A stretch of 64,000 nt of DNA from Escherichia coli O127:H6 str. E2348/69 (GTDB lineage Bacteria > Pseudomonadota > Gammaproteobacteria > Enterobacterales > Enterobacteriaceae), in assembly GCF_000026545.1 (NCBI RefSeq), contig NC_011601.1, one strand, 5' to 3'. The notes under the pieces were generated by a model. It was not told the DNA's origin. It saw only the letters and a program-made list of their open reading frames with translations, and ran no database searches. The translations under genes and the position numbers were made by a program. Shown here in pieces: positions 5,417-44,663 of the stretch; the stretch's first letter is position 1, and each line of letters starts with the position of its first letter.

Positions 5417-5674
5417 ATGAAAAACGTAAAAACCCTCATCGCTGCGGCGATTTTAAGCTCAATGTCATTTGCCAGCTTTGCGGCTGTCGAAGTTCAGTCA
5501 ACGCCAGAAGGCCAACAAAAAGTCGGTACTATCAGTGCTAACGCGGGGACAAATCTGGGATCGCTGGAAGAGCAGCTGGCGCAAAAAGCGGATGAGATGG
5601 GCGCAAAATCTTTCCGTATTACTTCTGTAACCGGTCCGAATACCCTCCATGGAACAGCAGTAATTTATAAATAA
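5417..5674 (+). CDS. bhsA: Multiple stress resistance protein BhsA (YcfR), secreted DUF1471-type
   Basis: 85-aa ORF with signal peptide MKNVKTLIAAAILSSMSFASFA; synteny. Confidence 0.9.
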   Translation: MKNVKTLIAAAILSSMSFASFAAVEVQSTPEGQQKVGTISANAGTNLGSLEEQLAQKADEMGAKSFRITSVTGPNTLHGTAVIYK

Positions 5675-5713
5675 GTATTAACCCTCATTAATGCCTGCTA
5701 CTGCTGATTTTTT

Positions 5714-5747
5714 CCCCGCGACATGCCGTGTCGCGGGGATTTTTTTA
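5714..5747 (+). terminator. Rho-independent terminator downstream of bhsA
   Basis: Stem ccccgcgac...gtcgcgggg followed by T7. Confidence 0.8.
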
Positions 5748-5755
5748 TCCGAGCT

Positions 5756-6715
5756 TTACAGAGTTTGTGGGCTCACTTGATGACGGCGGACATCCACCGG
5801 CATCCCGGAACGGACATCCATCACATGTTGCATCACTTCAGCGTCAGTTTGTGCTGCATCTTTAAATGATTGCATTGCGCTATTCAGCGTAATTGGCAGC
5901 AGCTGCGGATCGTCATCAATCTTCTCAGACAGCGGCTGATGTACTTCAACCAGACGCGCACCGTTTGGTTCGGCAGAGACTTTTATCGGAGTGTTGATGA
6001 TATTCACTTTGGTGCCTGGGGTGACCTGGCTAAAGAGTGTTTTGATATCGTCATCCCGCAGACGAATACAGCCAGAACTTACCCGCATGCCAATGCCGAA
6101 ATCGGCGTTCGTACCATGAAGCAAATAAACGCCGCCATAGGCCGCCAGACGAATCGCATGATGGCCCATTGGGTTATCCGGTCCTGCCGGCACTACCGCA
6201 GGCAACTCAATTCCCTGTGCCTTATACCGCGCGCGGATGTTTGCCGTTGGCGTCCAGGTTGGGTTTGCACGTTTGTCTGAAACGGTAGTCACCATCGTTG
6301 GCGTCAGCGTGTCACCACCTAACTGACCAATGCCGATGGGATACACGGTTACCGAATTTTTACCCGGCGGGTAGTAATAGAGACGCAGCTCCGCAATGTT
6401 GATCACAATGCCTTCGCGCGGCGCGTCTGGAAGTAGGGTTTGCAACGGGATCGTTAACACGCTACCCGCGCGCGGTACGTAAGGATCAACGCCGGGGTTA
6501 GCCTGTAACAGAGCGAGAAAGCCGACGTTATATTTTTTGGCGATCGCTTCCAGAGAACCACCGTCATTTTCCACCACATGAAATTTGTTTTCACCAACCA
6601 GACGACTGCCCGCTGACGGCAGCGGCCAGGTGTTGGCTTTTGCCGGTAGCGCCAGCGCCACGGCAGCGGCGAACGTAAAAAACGTTAGCCAGCGAGAAAA
6701 ACGCGTTTTGATCAT
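5756..6715 (-). CDS. ldtC: L,D-transpeptidase LdtC (YcfS)
   Basis: Internal start giving MIKTRFSRWLTFFTFAAAVALALPA...; LysM segment and YkuD catalytic region (HGT...SSGCIRL). Confidence 0.9.
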   Translation of the reverse strand: MIKTRFSRWLTFFTFAAAVALALPAKANTWPLPSAGSRLVGENKFHVVENDGGSLEAIAKKYNVGFLALLQANPGVDPYVPRAGSVLTIPLQTLLPDAPREGIVINIAELRLYYYPPGKNSVTVYPIGIGQLGGDTLTPTMVTTVSDKRANPTWTPTANIRARYKAQGIELPAVVPAGPDNPMGHHAIRLAAYGGVYLLHGTNADFGIGMRVSSGCIRLRDDDIKTLFSQVTPGTKVNIINTPIKVSAEPNGARLVEVHQPLSEKIDDDPQLLPITLNSAMQSFKDAAQTDAEVMQHVMDVRSGMPVDVRRHQVSPQTL

Positions 6716-31121: not shown

Positions 31122-32495
31122 ATGAAAAGACTATATTATACCCATCATGATAGTCGAACCTTAAAACTTGCTATAGAAGGTGATGTTTCTGATAATGCGA
31201 ATATTTTTACAGTAATTGTAGGTAAAAATGGCGTTGGAAAAAGCAGATTGTTATCTCAGATTGCTAAAGACTGTATTCAAGATATTCATTTCTTGAAAAC
31301 TTTTAATCCATTATTTGACAGAGAAATAACACCAAAGTTAATTGCCGTATCTACCAGCCCATTCGATAAATTCCCTCCAGGGCGTAGGTCATTAAATCAC
31401 CAAAGGAAAGAAAATAATTATCGCTATGTGGGTATGCGTGGAGAAGGCCCCTTCGGCGTATCAAATGCCGTATCCCTTTTATCTTCAGCAGCGAGAGGTT
31501 GGCTAGAGAAACTTGCTTATTCAGAAAATCCTGCAAATTTACTCGATGTTTTTCATTCTATTGATTTTGAGCCCCATATAGAGTTTGTATTTAAACCAAC
31601 TTACAACGGACCGGACACTCCTGACTATAACTTCATTGGTGTATATTCAGATGAGATATTAACGGAAGTTAAGGAGTTATATTTAAAATACAATATAAAA
31701 ATTGACAGGAAGAATATTGAGAGTCTCTTAAAGTTAAACTCCGAATCACGTCATGATATTTACGAAGCACTGGTTGAAATTAATCGATTTGAACCTGAAC
31801 GTAGGGCTGTAACCTTGTCAGTCGATTTTACCAATGGTGAAACATTGGTTGGCTCGACTTATGCGAATAATTATTTTTCTAGATCAATTCTTAAACTTAT
31901 GAACGCTGGCTTCATGAGATTGATGGATATGCGACTCATAAAAAAAAGCTATGGTCCCATGTCACTTAAACGTGCGAGCTCGGGAGAACAATGTTTATTA
32001 GTGATGTTGCTTGGAATTGCAGGGCATATAACTGATGGTTCTATAATACTAATTGATGAACCGGAAATAAGCTTGCATCCTCGATGGCAGGAAGAGTTTA
32101 TCATTATGTTAACAAAAGCATTTTTAACTTACTCAGGTTGTCAATTCATAATTGCAACTCATTCACCACAAATAATATCCAATTTGCCGAATAAAGGTTG
32201 TTATATAACATCTTTGTCGAAAAGTTATCTTTATAAAGCAAAATACTTTAGCAACCGGTCTGCAGACTATCAACTTGCGGAACTATTTGATGCCCCTGGC
32301 ATTATGAATGAATACATTGCCAGATTAGCTTTCAATTTACTTTCAAAAGTTAAGACTGCTAAGTTAGTAACAGATGATAATTGGCGTGAATTAAAACAAC
32401 TCCAGCTTCTCCTTGAAAACGTTAATAGTAATGACCCTATTAATGAACTCGTAAATTCCGTATCTCAGGTGTGTGAAATTTATGCCAAAAATTAA
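31122..32495 (+). CDS. ABC/AAA_21-type ATPase, Septu PtuA-like
   Basis: Walker A VIVGKNGVGKSRLL; Walker B + D-loop IILIDEPEISLHP; H-loop IIATHSPQII; 457 aa; overlaps downstream HNH gene. Confidence 0.75.
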   Translation: MKRLYYTHHDSRTLKLAIEGDVSDNANIFTVIVGKNGVGKSRLLSQIAKDCIQDIHFLKTFNPLFDREITPKLIAVSTSPFDKFPPGRRSLNHQRKENNYRYVGMRGEGPFGVSNAVSLLSSAARGWLEKLAYSENPANLLDVFHSIDFEPHIEFVFKPTYNGPDTPDYNFIGVYSDEILTEVKELYLKYNIKIDRKNIESLLKLNSESRHDIYEALVEINRFEPERRAVTLSVDFTNGETLVGSTYANNYFSRSILKLMNAGFMRLMDMRLIKKSYGPMSLKRASSGEQCLLVMLLGIAGHITDGSIILIDEPEISLHPRWQEEFIIMLTKAFLTYSGCQFIIATHSPQIISNLPNKGCYITSLSKSYLYKAKYFSNRSADYQLAELFDAPGIMNEYIARLAFNLLSKVKTAKLVTDDNWRELKQLQLLLENVNSNDPINELVNSVSQVCEIYAKN

Positions 32496-33117
32496 AAATC
32501 CAATTAGATTCAGCGCAGAGTCATTAGATATTATTGAGAAAAAATTGTCTTCTCCAGATTTTAAGCATACCAACTGGGGAGATGATGATTTGCAAGTTCT
32601 CCGTGCAGAAATTAGAAATCATTACAGAGAAGAACAAAAGCTAGAATGTGTATATTGTCATGAGCCTATTGGGGTAAGAGCTGCACAAGCTGCTCCTATA
32701 GAGCATATTGTGCCAAAATCTCAATATCTATGTTTTATTTTTGAACCTAAGAATCTATGTGTAGTATGTCCTGACTGCAATGAATTCAAAGGTAAAAATG
32801 AAGTGTTATTTGAACCCGTAATAAATGGGGGGCGGCGCAAAAACTATCCAACTGCATCTGCATCATTTCGCATCGTTCATCCACATATAGATGATTATGA
32901 GATGCATATTATAAAAGCAAATCGTGTTTATGTGGACAAAACACCTAAAGGGCACTATACCATTGGAATATGTAAACTAAATAGATTTTTTCATTATTTT
33001 GGGATGTGTGATGAATTTGTTAATGATGCAAAAATTGCTGAGGCAAATGAAAATTTTTTCAAAAAAGGTAGTATTACTACTAATGAATTATTGGATGATG
33101 ACATTCATTTGATTTAA
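32473..33117 (+). CDS. HNH endonuclease, Septu PtuB-like
   Basis: HNH/zinc motif CVYCHEP...IEHIVPKS...CVVCPDCNEFKGKN; 214 aa; start overlaps ATPase gene end by 23 nt. Confidence 0.75.
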   Translation: MKFMPKIKNPIRFSAESLDIIEKKLSSPDFKHTNWGDDDLQVLRAEIRNHYREEQKLECVYCHEPIGVRAAQAAPIEHIVPKSQYLCFIFEPKNLCVVCPDCNEFKGKNEVLFEPVINGGRRKNYPTASASFRIVHPHIDDYEMHIIKANRVYVDKTPKGHYTIGICKLNRFFHYFGMCDEFVNDAKIAEANENFFKKGSITTNELLDDDIHLI

Positions 33118-33371: not shown

Positions 33372-34460
33372 TCATGCTAGACACATGTAGGTTAGCCTCT
33401 TACGTGCCGGAAGGCAAGGAGATGTATGGGTCCACCACATATTGCAATTTTTATTCTCTTTTAAAATATATTCCACGGGCGTCATTAGTGCGAGCGCCTT
33501 GTGGGGTCTTTTGCTGTTATACAGCACCAGATATTCCGCCAGCTTCTGGTTAAATAGCGCCAGATCTTCAAAGAGTAAAATCTCATTAAATTCAATAAAC
33601 TGCTCTCTTAACGTCCGGTTAAAACGTTCACAGATAGCGTTCATTTTTGGCGTGTAGGGATAGGTCCAGAGGTGTTTGATAGCGGCTTCCTGCAGCGTTT
33701 TGTCGAAGTTTCCCAGGAACTCTTTTCCGTTATCTGTGATTATCTGGCTGATACCGACCGGGAACAACCGGGCTGCGCGGCTGAAGAAGTGATTGACGAT
33801 ATCACTGTTGAGTGACGGCACAGCCAGCGCCAGCGCGTAATTGCTGCATTCGTCGATCATGGTGATGACATAGCGACGCAGTTCGCCCATTCTGAGCTCA
33901 ATGGCGTCCATCCCAATGAGCTCACCTGTCTTTACCGGGCGGTAGTGCTTTGGCCTGCGGGGTTTGGCAGACCGCTTTTTGACAAGCAGTGCCTTCCCCC
34001 GCGATCCCAGACGCACAGGTATCATCCGCATTTTATCATGTGCGGCAGCGATCATTCTGCCGATGGTGGAAACACTCGGACAGGCCAGATAGCGCTGTTC
34101 GCACCAGGGCTTCAGGCGAACAAAAATCTGCTCTTTACCGAGGTTCGGCAGCTCTGTCCTGAGGCGTCGAATCTCTTTCAGCACATCGGGATGCCAGTGT
34201 TTTTTTCGTCGCACCAGAGGTGCCTTACTGTGCGGGATTAGCCCCTCAGGTCCTTCCTTGTTCAGTAACTGACGCCACCAGTAAAGCGTGCGGCAGGACA
34301 CGCCAAAGGCTTCAGAAGCTGCAGAAATACCGTGTTTATCCCAGAAGTGCAGAGCCTTCATTCTCATTGTTGCTATATCAGCCATCACTGAAAGCCTCAA
34401 CGCATAATCGGCCGTTTGGTAGTACTTAGGATAGCCAACCATCAGATGCTGCATTTGCAT
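33372..34460 (-). CDS. IS481-family DDE transposase (integrase-core/rve domain)
   Basis: 362 aa; N-terminal HTH (...CRTLYWWRQ...), DDE core, C-terminal ...YNSKRPHKALALMTPVEY typical of rve transposases. Confidence 0.7.
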   Translation of the reverse strand: MQMQHLMVGYPKYYQTADYALRLSVMADIATMRMKALHFWDKHGISAASEAFGVSCRTLYWWRQLLNKEGPEGLIPHSKAPLVRRKKHWHPDVLKEIRRLRTELPNLGKEQIFVRLKPWCEQRYLACPSVSTIGRMIAAAHDKMRMIPVRLGSRGKALLVKKRSAKPRRPKHYRPVKTGELIGMDAIELRMGELRRYVITMIDECSNYALALAVPSLNSDIVNHFFSRAARLFPVGISQIITDNGKEFLGNFDKTLQEAAIKHLWTYPYTPKMNAICERFNRTLREQFIEFNEILLFEDLALFNQKLAEYLVLYNSKRPHKALALMTPVEYILKENKNCNMWWTHTSPCLPARKRLTYMCLA

Positions 34461-36560: not shown

Positions 36561-36926
36561 ATGACTGAACGCATAGAATTTGTTTTGCCTTACCCGCCAA
36601 CGGTGAACACTTACTGGCGACGTCGTGGCAGCACATATTTTGTATCAAAAGCCGGTGAGCGTTATCGCCGTGATGTGGCGCTTATTGTTCGCCAGCAGCG
36701 GCTGAAATTAAACCTGTCCGGAAGGCTGGCGATAAAGATTATTGCAGAGCCACCGGATAAACGTCGTCGTGACCTGGACAATATCCTGAAAGCACCACTG
36801 GATGCGCTGACGCATGCCGGACTTCTCATAGACGACGAGCAGTTTGATGAAATCAATATTGTGCGCGGTCAGCGCGTTCCTGGGGGGCGGCTGGGCGTGA
36901 AGATTTACAAAATTGAGAGTGAGTGA
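36561..36926 (+). CDS. rusA: Holliday-junction resolvase RusA
   Basis: 121 aa; ...PPDKRRRDLDNILKAPLDALTHAGLLIDDEQ... matches the RusA catalytic core (RRDLDN) as recalled. Confidence 0.88.
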   Translation: MTERIEFVLPYPPTVNTYWRRRGSTYFVSKAGERYRRDVALIVRQQRLKLNLSGRLAIKIIAEPPDKRRRDLDNILKAPLDALTHAGLLIDDEQFDEINIVRGQRVPGGRLGVKIYKIESE

Positions 36927-37477
36927 TCGTAAATATGATATATCCGGAAATTACAGGCAAAAGCGGCGAGCATTTACGTCTAAAAACGCTGGAAGCCGTC
37001 TGGATCCAGGGGAAATTACGGATGTGGGGGCGTTGGTCGTATATAGGTGGTGGCAAACCAGGAAATATGTTCAATCAGTTGCTGGCATCCAAAAAACTGA
37101 CAAAAACCGCGGTCAATGAAGCCCTGCGTAGAATCAGGGAGTCAGGGATTGATAAACCAGAGCTGGAAGCATTCTTGCGAGAGATGATCGCTGGCAGACA
37201 GAAGAGCTGGTTGTCTCACTGTACTGATGCAGAGGCGTTACGCATTGATGGGGTGATAAGTAAAGCGCTTGCACGTTATCCTGGATTGATTGATATCCTG
37301 CGGCAAAGGTACGAAGGGCGGGGGATGAGTAAACGCAAAATGGCTGAATTGTTGAATGAGGTTCACCCTGAGTGGTGCTATGCAACATGCCGCAATCGTA
37401 TAGATATGTGGCTGAGAATAGCTGAGTTTATTCTGTATCCACTGATGCGAGATGCATTTTCTTTTACTGACGCTTAG
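36923..37477 (+). CDS. Putative late-gene antiterminator (Q-like)
   Basis: 184-aa ORF overlapping the rusA stop, last gene before a strong terminator, as for Q/pR'/tR'; family assignment from position plus loose similarity. Confidence 0.5.
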   Translation: MIVNMIYPEITGKSGEHLRLKTLEAVWIQGKLRMWGRWSYIGGGKPGNMFNQLLASKKLTKTAVNEALRRIRESGIDKPELEAFLREMIAGRQKSWLSHCTDAEALRIDGVISKALARYPGLIDILRQRYEGRGMSKRKMAELLNEVHPEWCYATCRNRIDMWLRIAEFILYPLMRDAFSFTDA

Positions 37478-37643
37478 AATCTGGAGGGCGTTTGTTGTTG
37501 CACGAAGAGGATTTTTGGCTGGTAGTAAGGTTTGTGCAGTTTTAGAAAAAAAGCTTGTATTTTTAGCCATAAACTGTTTCAATCCAGCTACGCTTCGCAA
37601 AGCTGTACCGCGAGGCGAATAGCAGACATGGACACCTGAAAGA

Positions 37644-37668
37644 ACCCGCTTTATGCGGGTTTTTTTTA
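37644..37668 (+). terminator. Rho-independent terminator, candidate tR'
   Basis: acccgctttatgcgggt stem-loop followed by T9, about 170 bp downstream of the Q-like gene. Confidence 0.7.
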
Positions 37669-37790
37669 TGCCTGAAAAACGGCACAGAACATTAAACGCG
37701 CTGGTTGTTGTGAATACTGGTCTTTCAGCTTGCTGGCTTTTTCGACAAGAGGTATTGGTATGTCACGTTAACCGGAAAAGGGAAAAAGGC

Positions 37791-37988
37791 ATGCTAAAAC
37801 AGCTGGATATGACCGAAACCGCCAGAGTGGTGTTTAATGAATTAAGCGTCACCGAACCGGCGACCGTCGGGGAAATTGCGCAGAATACTTACCTTTCACG
37901 CGAACGCTGCCAGTTAATACTGACTCAGCTTGTTATGGCGGGTCTGGCAGATTATCAGTTCGGTTGTTACAGACGCCTTCCGCAGTGA
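37791..37988 (+). CDS. Small hypothetical protein
   Basis: 65-aa ORF MLKQLDMTETARVVFNELSVTEPATVGEIAQ... with possible winged-helix character. Confidence 0.35.
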   Translation: MLKQLDMTETARVVFNELSVTEPATVGEIAQNTYLSRERCQLILTQLVMAGLADYQFGCYRRLPQ

Positions 37989-38138
37989 AGGCTTTTTAAT
38001 TTGTGGTAATGGGCGGCTGGTGGGTGTTAGCGGCACCTGCCAGCCATCTGCTCATGCGTTGGGGTCACAAGCAAACCTCAGGCCCATCTGCTTTGCGCAA
38101 AAGCGGTATGAGCCTATCAGAGAAGTGCTTATTGATCT

Positions 38139-39188
38139 ATGATTAATACTGTAAAAATATCCAGTTGTGAGTTAATCAACGCTGATTGCCTGGAATTTAT
38201 CCAGACCTTACCGGAAAACTCTGTCGATCTGATAGTCACAGACCCGCCATACTTTAAAGTGAAGCCCGAGGGCTGGGATAACCAGTGGGAGGGCGACGAT
38301 GATTACCTGAAATGGCTGGACCAGTGTCTGGCGCAGTTCTGGCGGGTACTGAAGCCTGCCGGAAGTCTTTACCTGTTCTGTGGTCATCGCCTGGCATCTG
38401 ACACCGAAATCATGATGCGTGAGCGCTTTAATGTGCTGAACCACATTATCTGGGCGAAGCCGTCCGGACGCTGGAACGGGTGCAATAAGGAAAGTCTGCG
38501 GGCGTATTTTCCGGCAACAGAGCGCATTCTGTTTGCAGAACATTATCAGGGACCGTATCGCCCGAAAGATGATGGCTATGTGGCACAGGGGCGCGAGCTA
38601 AAACAGCACGTCATGGCCCCGCTGATTTCTTACTTTCGTGATGCGCGTAAATCACTGGGAATAACGTCAAAACAGATAGCGGAAGCCACCGGAAAGAAAA
38701 ACATGGCTTCGCACTGGTTTGGTACCAGTCAGTGGCAGTTACCGAACGAGGGTAATTACAACAAATTGCAGGCGTTGTTTGCGCGTGTTGCGGCAGAAAA
38801 ACATCAGCGCGGGGAACTGGAAAAGCCACACCACCAGCTGGTCAGCACATACAGTGAGCTGAACCGGCAGTATACGGAACTGCTGAGTGAATATAAAAAT
38901 TTGCGGCGGTATTTCGGTGTGACGGCGCAGGTTCCGTACACCGATGTCTGGACGCATAAACCGGTGCAGTACTATCCAGGGAAACATCCGTGCGAAAAAC
39001 CGGCAGAAATGCTGCAGCAGATAATCAACGCGAGCAGTCGTCCGGGAGACCTGGTTGCAGATTTTTTTATGGGTTCAGGTTCAACGGTAAAAGCGGCGAT
39101 GGCACTGGGGCGTTGTGCGATTGGTGTTGAGCTGGAGACAGGACGTTTTGAACAGACAGTCAGGGAAGTTCAGGATTTAATCGTTTGA
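38139..39188 (+). CDS. Orphan DNA methyltransferase (N6-adenine/N4-cytosine, beta class)
   Basis: Motif IV TDPPY (LIVTDPPYF) near N-terminus and AdoMet-binding FxGSGST (FFMGSGSTV) near C-terminus; no adjacent restriction gene. Confidence 0.85.
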   Translation: MINTVKISSCELINADCLEFIQTLPENSVDLIVTDPPYFKVKPEGWDNQWEGDDDYLKWLDQCLAQFWRVLKPAGSLYLFCGHRLASDTEIMMRERFNVLNHIIWAKPSGRWNGCNKESLRAYFPATERILFAEHYQGPYRPKDDGYVAQGRELKQHVMAPLISYFRDARKSLGITSKQIAEATGKKNMASHWFGTSQWQLPNEGNYNKLQALFARVAAEKHQRGELEKPHHQLVSTYSELNRQYTELLSEYKNLRRYFGVTAQVPYTDVWTHKPVQYYPGKHPCEKPAEMLQQIINASSRPGDLVADFFMGSGSTVKAAMALGRCAIGVELETGRFEQTVREVQDLIV

Positions 39189-39237
39189 AACGGATGGGAT
39201 TGCAGAATTAATTACGCACCATTATTATTCTGCTACC

Positions 39238-39313
39238 GGCCCTTTAGCTCAGTGGTGAGAGCGAGCGACTCATAATCGCCAGGTCGCTGGTTCAAATCCA
39301 GCAAGGGCCACCA
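39238..39313 (+). tRNA. ileZ: tRNA with CAU anticodon, Ile2-like (ileZ-type of lambdoid phages)
   Basis: Hand-folded cloverleaf: acceptor GGCCCTT/AAGGGCC, D-arm GCTC..GAGC, anticodon loop CTCATAA, T-arm GCTGG TTCAAAT CCAGC, CCA end; resembles E. coli tRNA-Ile2 as recalled. Confidence 0.85.
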
Positions 39314-39320
39314 TCACATA

Positions 39321-39397
39321 CCGCCATTAGCTCATCGGCAGAGAGCGTCAGCTTTCGAAACTGGCTGTGTGGGGCCCGGGTCCCCGATGGCAATCCA
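39321..39397 (+). ncRNA. Degenerate tRNA-like element (possible pseudo-tRNA, argN-like position)
   Basis: U8A9 + D-arm GCTCATCGGCAGAGAGC and CCA end, but mismatched acceptor, 9-nt anticodon loop and atypical T-loop. Confidence 0.3.
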
Positions 39398-39410
39398 TTA
39401 TTTGCATTAT

Positions 39411-39487
39411 GCGTTGTTAGCTCAGCCGGACAGAGCAATTGCCTTCTAAGCAATCGGTCACTGGTTCGAATCCAGTACAACGCGCCA
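39411..39487 (+). tRNA. argO: tRNA-Arg (anticodon UCU)
   Basis: Cloverleaf: acceptor GCGTTGT/ACAACGC, anticodon stem ATTGC/GCAAT with loop CTTCTAA, T-arm ACTGG TTCGAAT CCAGT, CCA end. Confidence 0.9.
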
Positions 39488-39597
39488 TATTCATTCTTCC
39501 AGATTTCTTCCGGCAGAGCCTTATACTGGAATATACCTGGCTCAGGATATTGTTGAAAATATTATATGTTTGTCAAAAATAAAAGTTCTGTTAAGTA

Positions 39598-39951
39598 TTG
39601 ATTGAGTGTTTGTTATACGGTCTAATGGTTTTTTCAGTATTAAATATTTATCATTCATATGGTGTGGGTAGAGTGAATATTGATGAGGCGTCGGGGTGTT
39701 TCATCCTTAGGCAGCGTATTGATATAGTCAATGCAGCACGAGCAAAGGCCTTCAGCCGTTTGACAGTTTTGTTCTGTACTCCTGATCGTCTTTCGGGAAG
39801 AGACGTTATTCTTCTGAATAGTGATGCTATACAGAGGGTTTGCGATGAGTTCATGGTTGCTAATTCAGAATTATTTGCTCTTGTTCAGGAGTACAACAGA
39901 ATAGCCAGGACCTGTGGTATGGATGAACTTCGGATTACTCATCTGGGGTAG
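39598..39951 (+). CDS. Hypothetical protein (117 aa) at the position occupied by stx in Stx phages
   Basis: ORF directly downstream of the tRNA cluster; hydrophobic N-terminus; no recognisable family. Confidence 0.45.
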   Translation: MIECLLYGLMVFSVLNIYHSYGVGRVNIDEASGCFILRQRIDIVNAARAKAFSRLTVLFCTPDRLSGRDVILLNSDAIQRVCDEFMVANSELFALVQEYNRIARTCGMDELRITHLG

Positions 39952-40979
39952 ATACATATCTGGATTATCACCTGTTACGGTAAAAAGTGATTGCTTACTG
40001 TTTTTGTGAATGGCATTGCAGCAGCCGGATAATGTCAGTGCTGGCTGACTGTGTACTGGTGGCGGGTGTGGTGGTTGTTGCTTTCCCGTTGCTGAAAAAG
40101 AAAACGCCAGACTGTTAGCCGGAGAAATTTTTAAATACTTCACAATTCAGGCGGTTGACTGTTGTCTGGTTTGCGGGGAGTTTGTTAAAAGAAACTGGCA
40201 TGGTGAATCCACCTGTGCGGAGGGGCAATCAGCGAGTAGGTATATGGGATAATCGCGGATTCAGGTGCTGGTACTGAATTCACCGGGAGGCACCCGGCAC
40301 CATGCAATGGCACATAGCGCCACTCTCCAGCCCCTCTCCGGAGGGGCTGTTTATATTGATTTTGTCAGATGTGAGTAAACTCCTTATGGACTTTGTTGTT
40401 TTAGTCCATAAGGACATATTTGCAGAGTGCAACGGTTATTAAAGCATTCATTCAATACGTTATCTGTATTTGTAGGGCATTCCTGGCTGTTTTTGATTAA
40501 ATTCCAGAATGTTTTATTGAATGGTACTACGTTGTAAATGGTTACAGGTAGCACTTTGTTATTGAGCATGATACCTGTGTGAGTCAGTGTAAATATACTT
40601 TCAGGAGGTAAGAAAGCATCCGATTGATACCAGATTATTAATTTTATTTTACTCCATATGACTGAAAAAGATATTCCGCATGATGGCTGGATAACTGTAT
40701 CAATCACAATCCACTTCATTTAGTTTCCTTGTTTATGCCTTGCTGGTGATGTTCTGAAAAGTATAAATGATATTTTTGATTGTAAACCATAGAGCAGAAT
40801 TATTTTTCTGATGTTGTTTATTGTTTATTTAAATGCAGGGTGGTTTATATCTCGTCTTGTAGTTTATCCATGCATATCTGCTTGATGATGAGGTTTTTAT
40901 TTAAGGTATGGTTTTGTGTTTTTTCTGTATTACATGTCAGGTATTTTAAAGAATTATTTTTCAGATGGTGGAAAGAACC

Positions 40980-43085: not shown

Positions 43086-44663
43086 CCCCCAGCTAGGCTC
43101 TGTCTCTTATACACAAATCCCCACCCGGGGATTTGTGATGTCTGTCAGTCTGCTTTAGGGGGACTCTTTCCATCCGGTAGTTTCCTTCCTCCCCGGCAGC
43201 GATTTTTTGAACTTTTTCCTCACCCGTTGATCTTCTCTTATATTTCATTTTCTTCGGGTCTGTTATGGTACTTTCTGATTGTTATTCATGGGCTAACGAG
43301 CAGTTTGGACATGCCCGTCTCGGTGATCCGCGTCGTACACGACGCCTTGTGTCACTGGCCTCTTCTCTCGCTCAGCATGCAGGTCTTTCTATTGTGAAAT
43401 CATCCCAGTCCACTGCTCAGGTTGAAGGTGCGTACCGCCTGATACGTAACCCGTCTGTGTCCCCGCAAGCCATTGCCGAAGCCGGATTTACCGCCACTGT
43501 AAGGGCATGTGAGGCTCATCCGCTGCTCCTCGCGCTGGAAGACACCACCACCATTAACTTCAGTCACAGTACGGCATCTGATGACCTGGGGAATACCACC
43601 ACTAACCCGAAGACGCGCGGGCTGCTGGCTCACTCTGTCCTGATGTACGCCCCCGACAGCGCCCTGCCAGTCGGTCTTATCGAACAGCAGCGCTGGAGTC
43701 GTGCCACGGACACCTACGGTGTTAAGCACCAGCGAAAAGAACGTCCCTATGAAGAAAAAGAAAGTTACCGCTGGCAGCAGGCTTCGGAGCGCATGGCCGA
43801 ACGGCTGGGGGAGATACAGAAACGGGTAATCACTGTCTGTGACCGGGAAGCGGATATCTGGCATTACCTGCATTATAAAGTCAGCCACGGGCAGCGCTTC
43901 GTGGTGCGTGCAGCACAGAATCGCCGGCTGGAAGAAGCACCCGGCAAGCTCTTCGAACTGCCGGAAGTCCTGGCAACCGCGGGAAGCCACACGCTGAATG
44001 TGATGCAAAAAGGCGGGCGGGCAGCCCGCCAGGCCCGGATGTTCATCAGTTACAGCGAAGTCAGCATAAAAAATCCCGACAACAGCGGCCAGGCGCTCCC
44101 GCTCACGTATGTCTGTTGCCGGGAGCAGGCAGAGGACGGCGCCTGCTGGCATCTGCTGACGTCAGAAAAAGTGGCGAGTGCCGCCGATGCGCGACGTATC
44201 GTCAGCCATTACGAGCGACGCTGGCTGATAGAGGAATACCACAAGGCGTGGAAAAGTGGTGGTACATGTGTGGAATCGCTGCGAATGCAGACCCGGGATA
44301 ACCTCGAGCGCATGGTGGTTATCAAGGCGTTTATCGCGGTGCGGGTGCTGGGCCTGCGGCAGGGCGGTATCAGTGAAGAAACACAAAATGACAGCTGTGA
44401 GAAAATACTGACGCCGACAGAGTGGAAACTGCTGTGGGTTAAGCTGGAAGGAAAACCGCTTCCGTCACAGATGCCGACACTGAAATGGGCCTGTCTGAAA
44501 CTGGCGAAACTGGGGCGATGGCATGACAGCAAACGCACCGGTCGCCCCGGTTGGGTAGTCATGTGGGATGGCTGGTTCAGACTTCAGGATATGGTTGAGG
44601 GTTACCTGGTGATGAAGTCTCTTGATCAGGAGATCTGATCAAGAGACAGAGCTAGGCTGGGGG
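43086..44663 (+). mobile_element. IS4-family (IS50-like) insertion sequence
   Basis: Imperfect terminal inverted repeats CCCCCAGCTAGGCTCTGTCTCTT (43086) and revcomp of aagagacagagctaggctggggg (44639-44663), containing the CTGTCTCTT motif of IS50 ends; Tn5-Tnp-like transposase inside. Confidence 0.8.
43265..44638 (+). CDS. IS50-like DDE transposase
   Basis: 457 aa, colinear with Tn5 transposase as recalled (LGDPRRTRRLV..., ...YERRWLIEEYHKAWKSG..., ...NLERMV...). Confidence 0.85.
   Translation: MVLSDCYSWANEQFGHARLGDPRRTRRLVSLASSLAQHAGLSIVKSSQSTAQVEGAYRLIRNPSVSPQAIAEAGFTATVRACEAHPLLLALEDTTTINFSHSTASDDLGNTTTNPKTRGLLAHSVLMYAPDSALPVGLIEQQRWSRATDTYGVKHQRKERPYEEKESYRWQQASERMAERLGEIQKRVITVCDREADIWHYLHYKVSHGQRFVVRAAQNRRLEEAPGKLFELPEVLATAGSHTLNVMQKGGRAARQARMFISYSEVSIKNPDNSGQALPLTYVCCREQAEDGACWHLLTSEKVASAADARRIVSHYERRWLIEEYHKAWKSGGTCVESLRMQTRDNLERMVVIKAFIAVRVLGLRQGGISEETQNDSCEKILTPTEWKLLWVKLEGKPLPSQMPTLKWACLKLAKLGRWHDSKRTGRPGWVVMWDGWFRLQDMVEGYLVMKSLDQEI

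Follow-up and report, generated by a model that had tools for sequence, protein, structure and literature searches.

An M.EcoGII-family adenine methyltransferase gene behind a Q-like antiterminator in a defective lambdoid prophage of Escherichia coli E2348/69

The late region of a defective lambdoid prophage in Escherichia coli O127:H6 str. E2348/69 encodes a DNA methyltransferase of the M.EcoGII family. We analyzed the gene within a window of 64,000 nucleotides of contig NC_011601.1, and all coordinates below are positions in that window. The gene is intact, its family is under purifying selection, it lies in a conserved block of genes, and the methylome published for this strain carries no signal from it. 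The best overall explanation, which we consider probable, is a methylase that acts on adenine in any sequence context, is expressed as a Q-dependent late gene, is silent in the lysogen and serves the phage against restriction. M.EcoGII itself (GenBank EGT69837.1, 349 aa, beta class) comes from E. coli O104:H4 C227-11; together with its paralogue M.EcoGI, which is identical to it at 333 of 349 residues and behaves in the same way, it methylates N6 of adenine in any context in DNA and RNA (Murray et al. 2018, PMC5778455). Similar enzymes were noted in that paper for phage 1720a-02 and other enterobacterial phages (PMC5778455). The E2348/69 gene is an uncharacterized allele within this well-known phage family, and an ordinary member of it.

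The gene is real and intact. The window agrees with the E2348/69 chromosome at every one of 41,050 bases compared (0 mismatches). The gene product is WP_000611208.1 of E2348/69 (100% identity), and it matches Pfam PF01555 (N6_N4_Mtase) over residues 29–340 with E = 2.1e-44 and 152.6 bits (cutoff 26.7), which is far above chance level. Motif IV is N-terminal and motif I is C-terminal, with an insert of about 125 residues separating them, as in the beta class. DNA methyltransferase models from PHROG and PADLOC matched with E values of about 1e-104 to 1e-159, and phmmer aligned M.BceJIV, M.RsrI, CcrM and M.MboIIA to the catalytic halves of the protein (E down to 2e-24). The original prediction, which had reported a 349-aa protein with DPPY near its N-terminus, FxGSGST near its C-terminus and the beta-class order of motifs, was correct in each of these respects.

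AlphaFold2, run on an alignment of 86 sequences, produced a model of the methyltransferase with a pLDDT of 93.8, low values being confined to about residues 135–150. The predicted fold is a Rossmann-type core broken by a helical insert, with helices at residues 147–158, 160–173, 177–184, 190–194, 204–223 and 238–255. The best PDB matches found by Foldseek were CcrM, M.BceJIV, M.MboIIA, a rotifer N4-cytosine methyltransferase, M.RsrI, M1.HpyAVI and M.PvuII, and the top matches to beta-class methyltransferases had E values of about 1e-17 to 1e-11. A published model of M.EcoGII also combines a Rossmann core with a helical TRD, described as a four-helix bundle with HTH (approximately residues 160–237) and long charged linkers (PMC11551740). 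Together, the PF01555 match and the structural matches of the model support assignment as a beta-class amino-(N6-adenine) DNA methyltransferase.

Table 1. Features of the methyltransferase locus and its prophage, in window coordinates.
Feature	Position	Strand	Details
Septu pair	31122-33117	+	PtuA, 457-aa AAA ATPase (PADLOC E=2e-165); PtuB, 211-aa HNH (E=1e-83)
IS481-family transposase	33372-34460	-	immediately downstream of the Septu pair
Q-like antiterminator gene	36935-37477	+	DUF1133 / PHROG 753; upstream of the methyltransferase
Candidate late promoter pR'	37555-37583	+	-35 TTGTAT, 17-nt spacer, extended -10 TGtTTCAAT
Intrinsic terminator, tR'-like	37643-37667	+	stem CCCGC/GCGGG, loop TTTAT, T8
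65-aa ORF, predicted winged helix	37791-37988	+	WP_000917691.1; RefSeq CDS; PHROG 331 (phrog_331 E=3e-36)
Second terminator-like hairpin	37975-37992	+	GCCTTC/GAAGGC, then T-run; at the stop of the 65-aa ORF
Methyltransferase leader	37989-38138	+	150 nt
Hairpin within leader	38009-38057	+	about 20 pairs including G-U; no T-run after it
Methyltransferase gene	38139-39188	+	M.EcoGII family, beta-class N6-adenine; ATG start, 349 aa
Methyltransferase motifs	aa 35-38; aa 309-316; ~aa 136-259		DPPY; FFMGSGST; helical linker/TRD insert
ileZ-like tRNA	39238-39313	+	anticodon CAT; RefSeq tRNA-Ile
Degenerate tRNA remnant	39321-39394	+	Rfam tRNA 22.2 bits, threshold 29
argO-like tRNA	39411-39487	+	Arg-TCT
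ORF in the stx slot	39598-39951	+	108-117 aa; PHROG 2873 E=2e-69; followed by a DUF3927 gene
iraM	40384-40719	-	after the DUF3927 gene
ISEc13	43265-44638		between esterase and lysis genes
IS200C	~44776-45234		between esterase and lysis genes

The family is widespread: of 5,426 complete E. coli genomes, 1,939 have at least one copy, and a single genome may have as many as five. The exact protein occurs in at least three complete genomes, and 165 records hold versions at 99% identity or higher. When a library of 1.84 billion proteins was searched, 300 cluster representatives matched at E ≤ 1e-30, and many of the top-scoring ones were full-length matches at 33–65% identity. Among 84 copies of the gene, 82 are full length and 83 retain both DPPY and FxGSG. 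The dN/dS ratio calculated over 67 distinct nucleotide alleles is 0.11 overall, 0.06–0.07 in the catalytic halves and 0.13–0.19 in the TRD. The family is under strong purifying selection.

Comparison with 80 related IMG/VR loci showed that the gene belongs to a stable arrangement. A terminator, the 65-aa ORF, the leader, the methyltransferase and tRNAs follow one another in this order in 75–80 of about 80 loci, including that of M.EcoGII. A hairpin with a T-run lies approximately 470 nt 5′ of the methyltransferase start in 75 of 78 loci, the 65-aa ORF approximately 150 nt 5′ of the gene in all 78, and tRNA genes directly 3′ in 80 of 81. The gene upstream of the block varies among the 80 loci and may be any of several Q types or assorted morons. 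For phages phiP27, 1720a-02, a Stx2c phage and Stx2a_1447, all of which have different Q genes, alignment with our locus begins exactly at the terminator and continues through the methyltransferase; the block common to related phages has its left edge at the terminator. Terminator stems differ among loci yet stay self-complementary (CCCGC/GCGGG, GGCTGCC/GGCGGTC, CCACC/GGTGG and others). The locus in E2348/69 and that of M.EcoGII thus occupy a common slot in the lambdoid late region, with the 65-aa ORF leading to the methyltransferase and then to ileZ/arg tRNAs. They differ in the type of Q gene upstream and in the 65-aa ORF, whose type is A in E2348/69 and B beside M.EcoGII. The placement between a Q-like gene and tRNAs that was originally predicted therefore stands, with the refinement that the interval between the Q-like gene and the methyltransferase also contains the 65-aa ORF and two terminator-like hairpins.

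The Q-like gene matched PHROG 753 ("anti-termination protein Q-like") with E = 3e-78 and Pfam DUF1133, and its score against Pfam Phage_antitermQ was 27.9 bits, just over the cutoff of 26. By direct reading of the sequence we found a candidate pR′ downstream of it, a weak match that agrees with the consensus at 8 of 12 positions and has an extended -10. The same pattern (TTGnnn, 17 nt, TGnTTCAAT) is kept in other loci with DUF1133-type Q genes, despite different Q C-termini. The 14 loci having this exact Q allele offer only three near-identical variants for such a comparison. A consensus scan of the + strand from 36800 to 39552, covering the Q-like gene through the methyltransferase, returned no sigma-70-like promoter and did not report the candidate pR′. 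The scan also missed the terminator, which we read directly and confirmed by folding: the 91 nt around it (37585–37675) fold at -36.3 kcal/mol with z = -5.1. We infer from the organization of lambdoid phages that these two elements are pR′ and tR′. An Rfam search of 36900–40200 gave only tRNAs above gathering scores; matches to isrK (21.6 bits) and AgrB (26.5 bits) over the pR′–tR′ segment (37563–37668) fell below gathering scores and are probably due to chance. Short RNAs terminated downstream of pR′ are known regulators in Stx phages (StxS). The comparative paper on pR′ regions does not mention a methyltransferase (PMC6266700).

Because the methyltransferase has no promoter of its own and is positioned behind tR′, it would be transcribed only when Q allows read-through from pR′. 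From this architecture we think it moderately likely that Q-modified polymerase passing through tR′ is the only source of its transcript, and that the tRNAs are transcribed along with it. In Stx phages, where stx comes next after the methyltransferase–tRNA segment, the same polymerase would go on to transcribe the toxin genes. Expression of the methyltransferase probably begins only at a late stage of phage induction.

The 65-aa ORF occurs as two sequence types, which are conserved at both ends, at the N-terminus and in the recognition helix. AlphaFold2 modeled the protein with a pLDDT of 89.7 and an H-H-H-beta-beta topology, and the best structural matches were IclR/MarR wHTH domains, the N-terminal winged-helix domains of methyltransferases, and Z-alpha. 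On this model, it is predicted to be a stand-alone winged helix. A longer, 111-aa reading of the ORF (37653–37988) was rejected: its N-terminal extension begins within the loop of the terminator, and the frame would break in one homologue with a 10-nt deletion in the extension. In the hairpin at the end of the ORF, the two types differ at both partners of two stem pairs.

The leader is near-invariant among alleles whose coding regions differ by 10–18%, and it is more conserved than the winged-helix ORF. It folds at -61.4 kcal/mol with z = -2.7. Among 16 distinct leaders, nearly all of the variation preserves pairing, but it does so through one-sided changes only. There is no clear Shine-Dalgarno sequence ahead of the methyltransferase ATG. 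The winged-helix ORF and the structured leader, situated between tR′ and the methyltransferase, look to be unreported in the M.EcoGII papers that we consulted. On the 3′ side, the degenerate tRNA is probably a decayed argN, since most related loci have three tRNAs (CAT, TCG, TCT). At one related locus (L085), the tRNAs are followed by a 311-aa protein (5435–6370, + strand) with an NPPF motif (VIMNPPF); it seems to be another adenine methyltransferase, unrelated to the first, in the same late region.

The prophage is approximately 40 kb long and is inserted between potB and potC. Its late region is lambdoid, with the Q-like gene 5′ of the methyltransferase and tRNAs, an esterase gene and lysis genes 3′ of it. 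Directly after the portal gene come a truncated S49 protease fragment and a truncated NlpC/P60 fragment (52789–53237), from which it follows that the genes for the major capsid, tail tube and tape measure have been deleted and that particles cannot be made. Three IS elements (IS481, ISEc13 and IS200C) and several pseudogenes are present, and the Septu genes, IS481 and pseudogenes sit between the early region (early/nin) and Q. The prophage is defective. With these defects, the IS elements and the Septu genes that separate Q from the early region, it is doubtful that the prophage can still be induced, or Q expressed, in E2348/69.

The annotation of the whole prophage contains no restriction endonuclease. 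The conserved neighbors of the methyltransferase are the winged-helix ORF and tRNAs, with no endonuclease among them, so the gene does not form part of a type II restriction–modification system. An AAA-ATPase and HNH gene pair 5 kb upstream belongs to the Septu anti-phage defense system, the HNH protein being its PtuB. The methyltransferase is a phage-borne orphan, as had been proposed at the outset, and a non-specific methylase could have no cognate endonuclease in any case.

The methylome of E2348/69, determined by PacBio and ONT sequencing, contains only GATC, the two type I motifs YTCAN6GTNG and CYYAN7RTGA, and CCWGG, with neither a non-specific m6A signal nor an unassigned short motif (PMC8495745). 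Since it lacks any signal from the enzyme, the gene is silent in the E2348/69 lysogen (PMC8495745). [quoted passage not shown] The homologue in EC958, M.EcoMV, is another prophage-borne orphan, from a different strain and 99% identical to M.EcoGI; it was not transcribed by RT-PCR and was undetectable in the SMRT methylome under laboratory growth. M.Eco95JB1I and M.Eco95JB1II of O111:H-, also prophage-borne orphans and also different alleles (approximately 92–93% similar to M.EcoGI/GII), were not detected in the SMRT methylome under laboratory growth either. The latter two are listed as "nonspecific". Constitutive expression of M.EcoGII is deleterious and the clones are sick. Silence in the lysogen fits a gene locked behind tR′ with Q required to release it.

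These observations leave two parts of the original prediction unsupported. It had said that phage-borne orphan methylases can alter host methylation when expressed from prophages, which for this gene disagrees with the four motifs of the E2348/69 methylome (PMC8495745), with the untranscribed or undetected homologues of EC958 and O111, and with the harm caused by constitutive M.EcoGII. It had also implied that the enzyme has a motif that methylome analysis would discover, whereas the 91.4% identical M.EcoGII and its paralogue M.EcoGI methylate adenine in any context (PMC5778455). Comparing methylomes with and without the gene would yield no motif, because the family has none and is off in lysogens.

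The silence could also mean that the methyltransferase of E2348/69 is carried along without function in a decaying prophage, never expressed and still intact only because decay has yet to reach it. The loss of most head and tail genes, the three IS elements, the pseudogenes and a strain methylome with nothing attributable to the enzyme (PMC8495745) all speak for this. It is harder to reconcile with the state of the locus, where the methyltransferase ORF, Q-like gene, terminator, winged-helix ORF and leader are all intact, with the recurrence of identical or nearly identical copies in other genomes and records, and with the strong purifying selection on the family. We regard passenger status as plausible, though less likely than not. 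This reading bears only on what the gene does in E2348/69 and leaves the biochemical assignment untouched. Even under the explanation we prefer, a Q-dependent anti-restriction methylase, that role may be vestigial in this defective prophage.

It is also conceivable, but improbable, that tR′, the winged-helix protein, the leader and the methyltransferase form a dedicated module for the control or targeting of a toxic blanket methylase. The part of the winged-helix protein in such a module might be to hold back, time or steer the methyltransferase, or to read m6A, and the leader hairpin might keep translation low. Where the prophage is cryptic, as it is in E2348/69, Q supplied by a superinfecting phage of the same type might set off the module in trans.

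Our preferred assignment of any-context activity depends on the comparison with M.EcoGII. As a reference for M.EcoGII we used the allele of IMG/VR locus L047 (accessions AFS73976.1/AKE83937.1, O104:H4), which is the M.EcoGII sequence given in the supplement of PMC11551740 apart from three machine-reading garbles in the latter. The E2348/69 protein is identical to this reference at 319 of 349 residues (91.4%) without a gap, and the TRD is alignable throughout; against the machine-read copy itself, the count is 316 of 350 (PMC11551740). The 30 differences are distributed unevenly, with 6 in the N-terminal catalytic half, 20 in the linker/TRD (residues 135–259) and 4 in the C-terminal half. All 30 fall in columns that are variable among 86 family members spanning 31–91% identity. 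N206 is found in this allele alone, the residue there being D in 51 of 52 alleles. The linker/TRD, which holds 20 of the differences, is the part that would set specificity, and this counts against extending non-specificity from M.EcoGII to the E2348/69 allele.

More divergent variants are also active. The reconstructed ancestors Anc291 and SUPREM act on DNA, Anc291 being reported as 2.4-fold more active than M.EcoGII, and they methylate RNA without a discernible motif, while their non-specificity on DNA rests on bulk activity. The E2348/69 protein is at least 84% identical to Anc291 and at least 71% identical to SUPREM. At the 30 sites that separate it from M.EcoGII, Anc291 agrees with the E2348/69 protein at 15 and with M.EcoGII at 9. 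On the strength of the 91% identity and these active relatives, the E2348/69 allele probably methylates adenine without sequence preference.

The alternative would be a conventional, sequence-specific orphan type II adenine methyltransferase with a short motif of its own, and we consider this very unlikely. NCBI names in the protein's cluster read "site-specific DNA-methyltransferase", the linker/TRD holds two thirds of the differences from M.EcoGII, and M.PflMI, which the literature cites as the nearest site-specific relative, is a member of this superfamily too. However, M.PflMI is only 27% identical to M.EcoGII, whereas the E2348/69 protein matches M.EcoGII over its full length with no indels and differs from it only in variable columns. 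No motif is discernible for M.EcoGI, M.EcoGII or the far more divergent Anc291 and SUPREM, and the strain's methylome has no unassigned short motif that such an enzyme could account for (PMC8495745). The enzymes of solved structure CcrM (GANTC), M.BceJIV (GTWWAC), M.RsrI, M.MboIIA and M1.HpyAVI do read defined motifs and have the catalytic fold and motifs in common with the E2348/69 protein, but they are only about 20% identical to it, and their TRDs are not alignable with its 125-aa helical insert.

Least likely of all is RNA as the physiological substrate, whether rRNA, mRNA or the phage tRNAs next to the gene, by analogy with a Stx-prophage 16S rRNA methyltransferase that tunes induction: M.EcoGII does act on ssRNA and DNA:RNA hybrids in vitro, the gene regularly adjoins tRNA genes, and STEC has a reported prophage rRNA methyltransferase that regulates virulence (PMC10810198), but M.EcoGII is more active on DNA and its authors hold the RNA activity to be promiscuous, the strong structural matches to our model are all DNA methyltransferases with METTL3-14 only a weak one, and the STEC enzyme is a different gene. 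[quoted passage not shown] Although M.EcoGII also methylates RNA in vitro, the E2348/69 protein does not class with RNA or protein methyltransferases, which was the outcome named in advance as one that would refute the original prediction.

For the any-context methylase that we favor, the following course of events can be proposed. The enzyme would transfer the methyl group of S-adenosylmethionine to N6 of adenine in essentially any context. In the lysogen it would be off, a state that matters because constitutive blanket methylation is harmful. Once the prophage was induced, Q-modified RNA polymerase starting at pR′ would transcribe the methyltransferase together with the phage tRNAs, and replicating phage DNA would become hypermethylated before packaging. 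Adenine-methylation-sensitive restriction in the next host, which includes most type I and III and many type II systems, would then be unable to cut the DNA. We infer that progeny phage DNA gains blanket protection from such systems, as the M.EcoGII authors also proposed; in the papers that we consulted we found no in vivo demonstration of this benefit for M.EcoGII-type methylation. The earlier proposal of an orphan methylase that protects phage DNA is thus right about its being phage-borne and plausible about protection from restriction.

Phage Mu Mom offers a parallel. Its product is N6-carbamoylmethyl-adenine, and both the protein and the chemistry are unrelated to those of the methyltransferase; its regulation is different as well. 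Like the M.EcoGII family, however, Mom and other modification functions confined to induction are silent in the lysogen and toxic if expressed artificially, and they are presumed to give broad anti-restriction cover to progeny DNA (PMC12707154).

Our finding matters mostly as a correction of the expectation that a search of the methylome would reveal a motif for this enzyme. The family is very common in E. coli, and in Stx phages it shares its late transcription unit with the toxin genes. This makes it worthwhile to learn how the family is regulated in nature and how much it really helps phages to spread past restriction barriers. For the question of how a toxic enzyme stays silent, the invariant winged-helix ORF and the structured leader are a tangible starting point.
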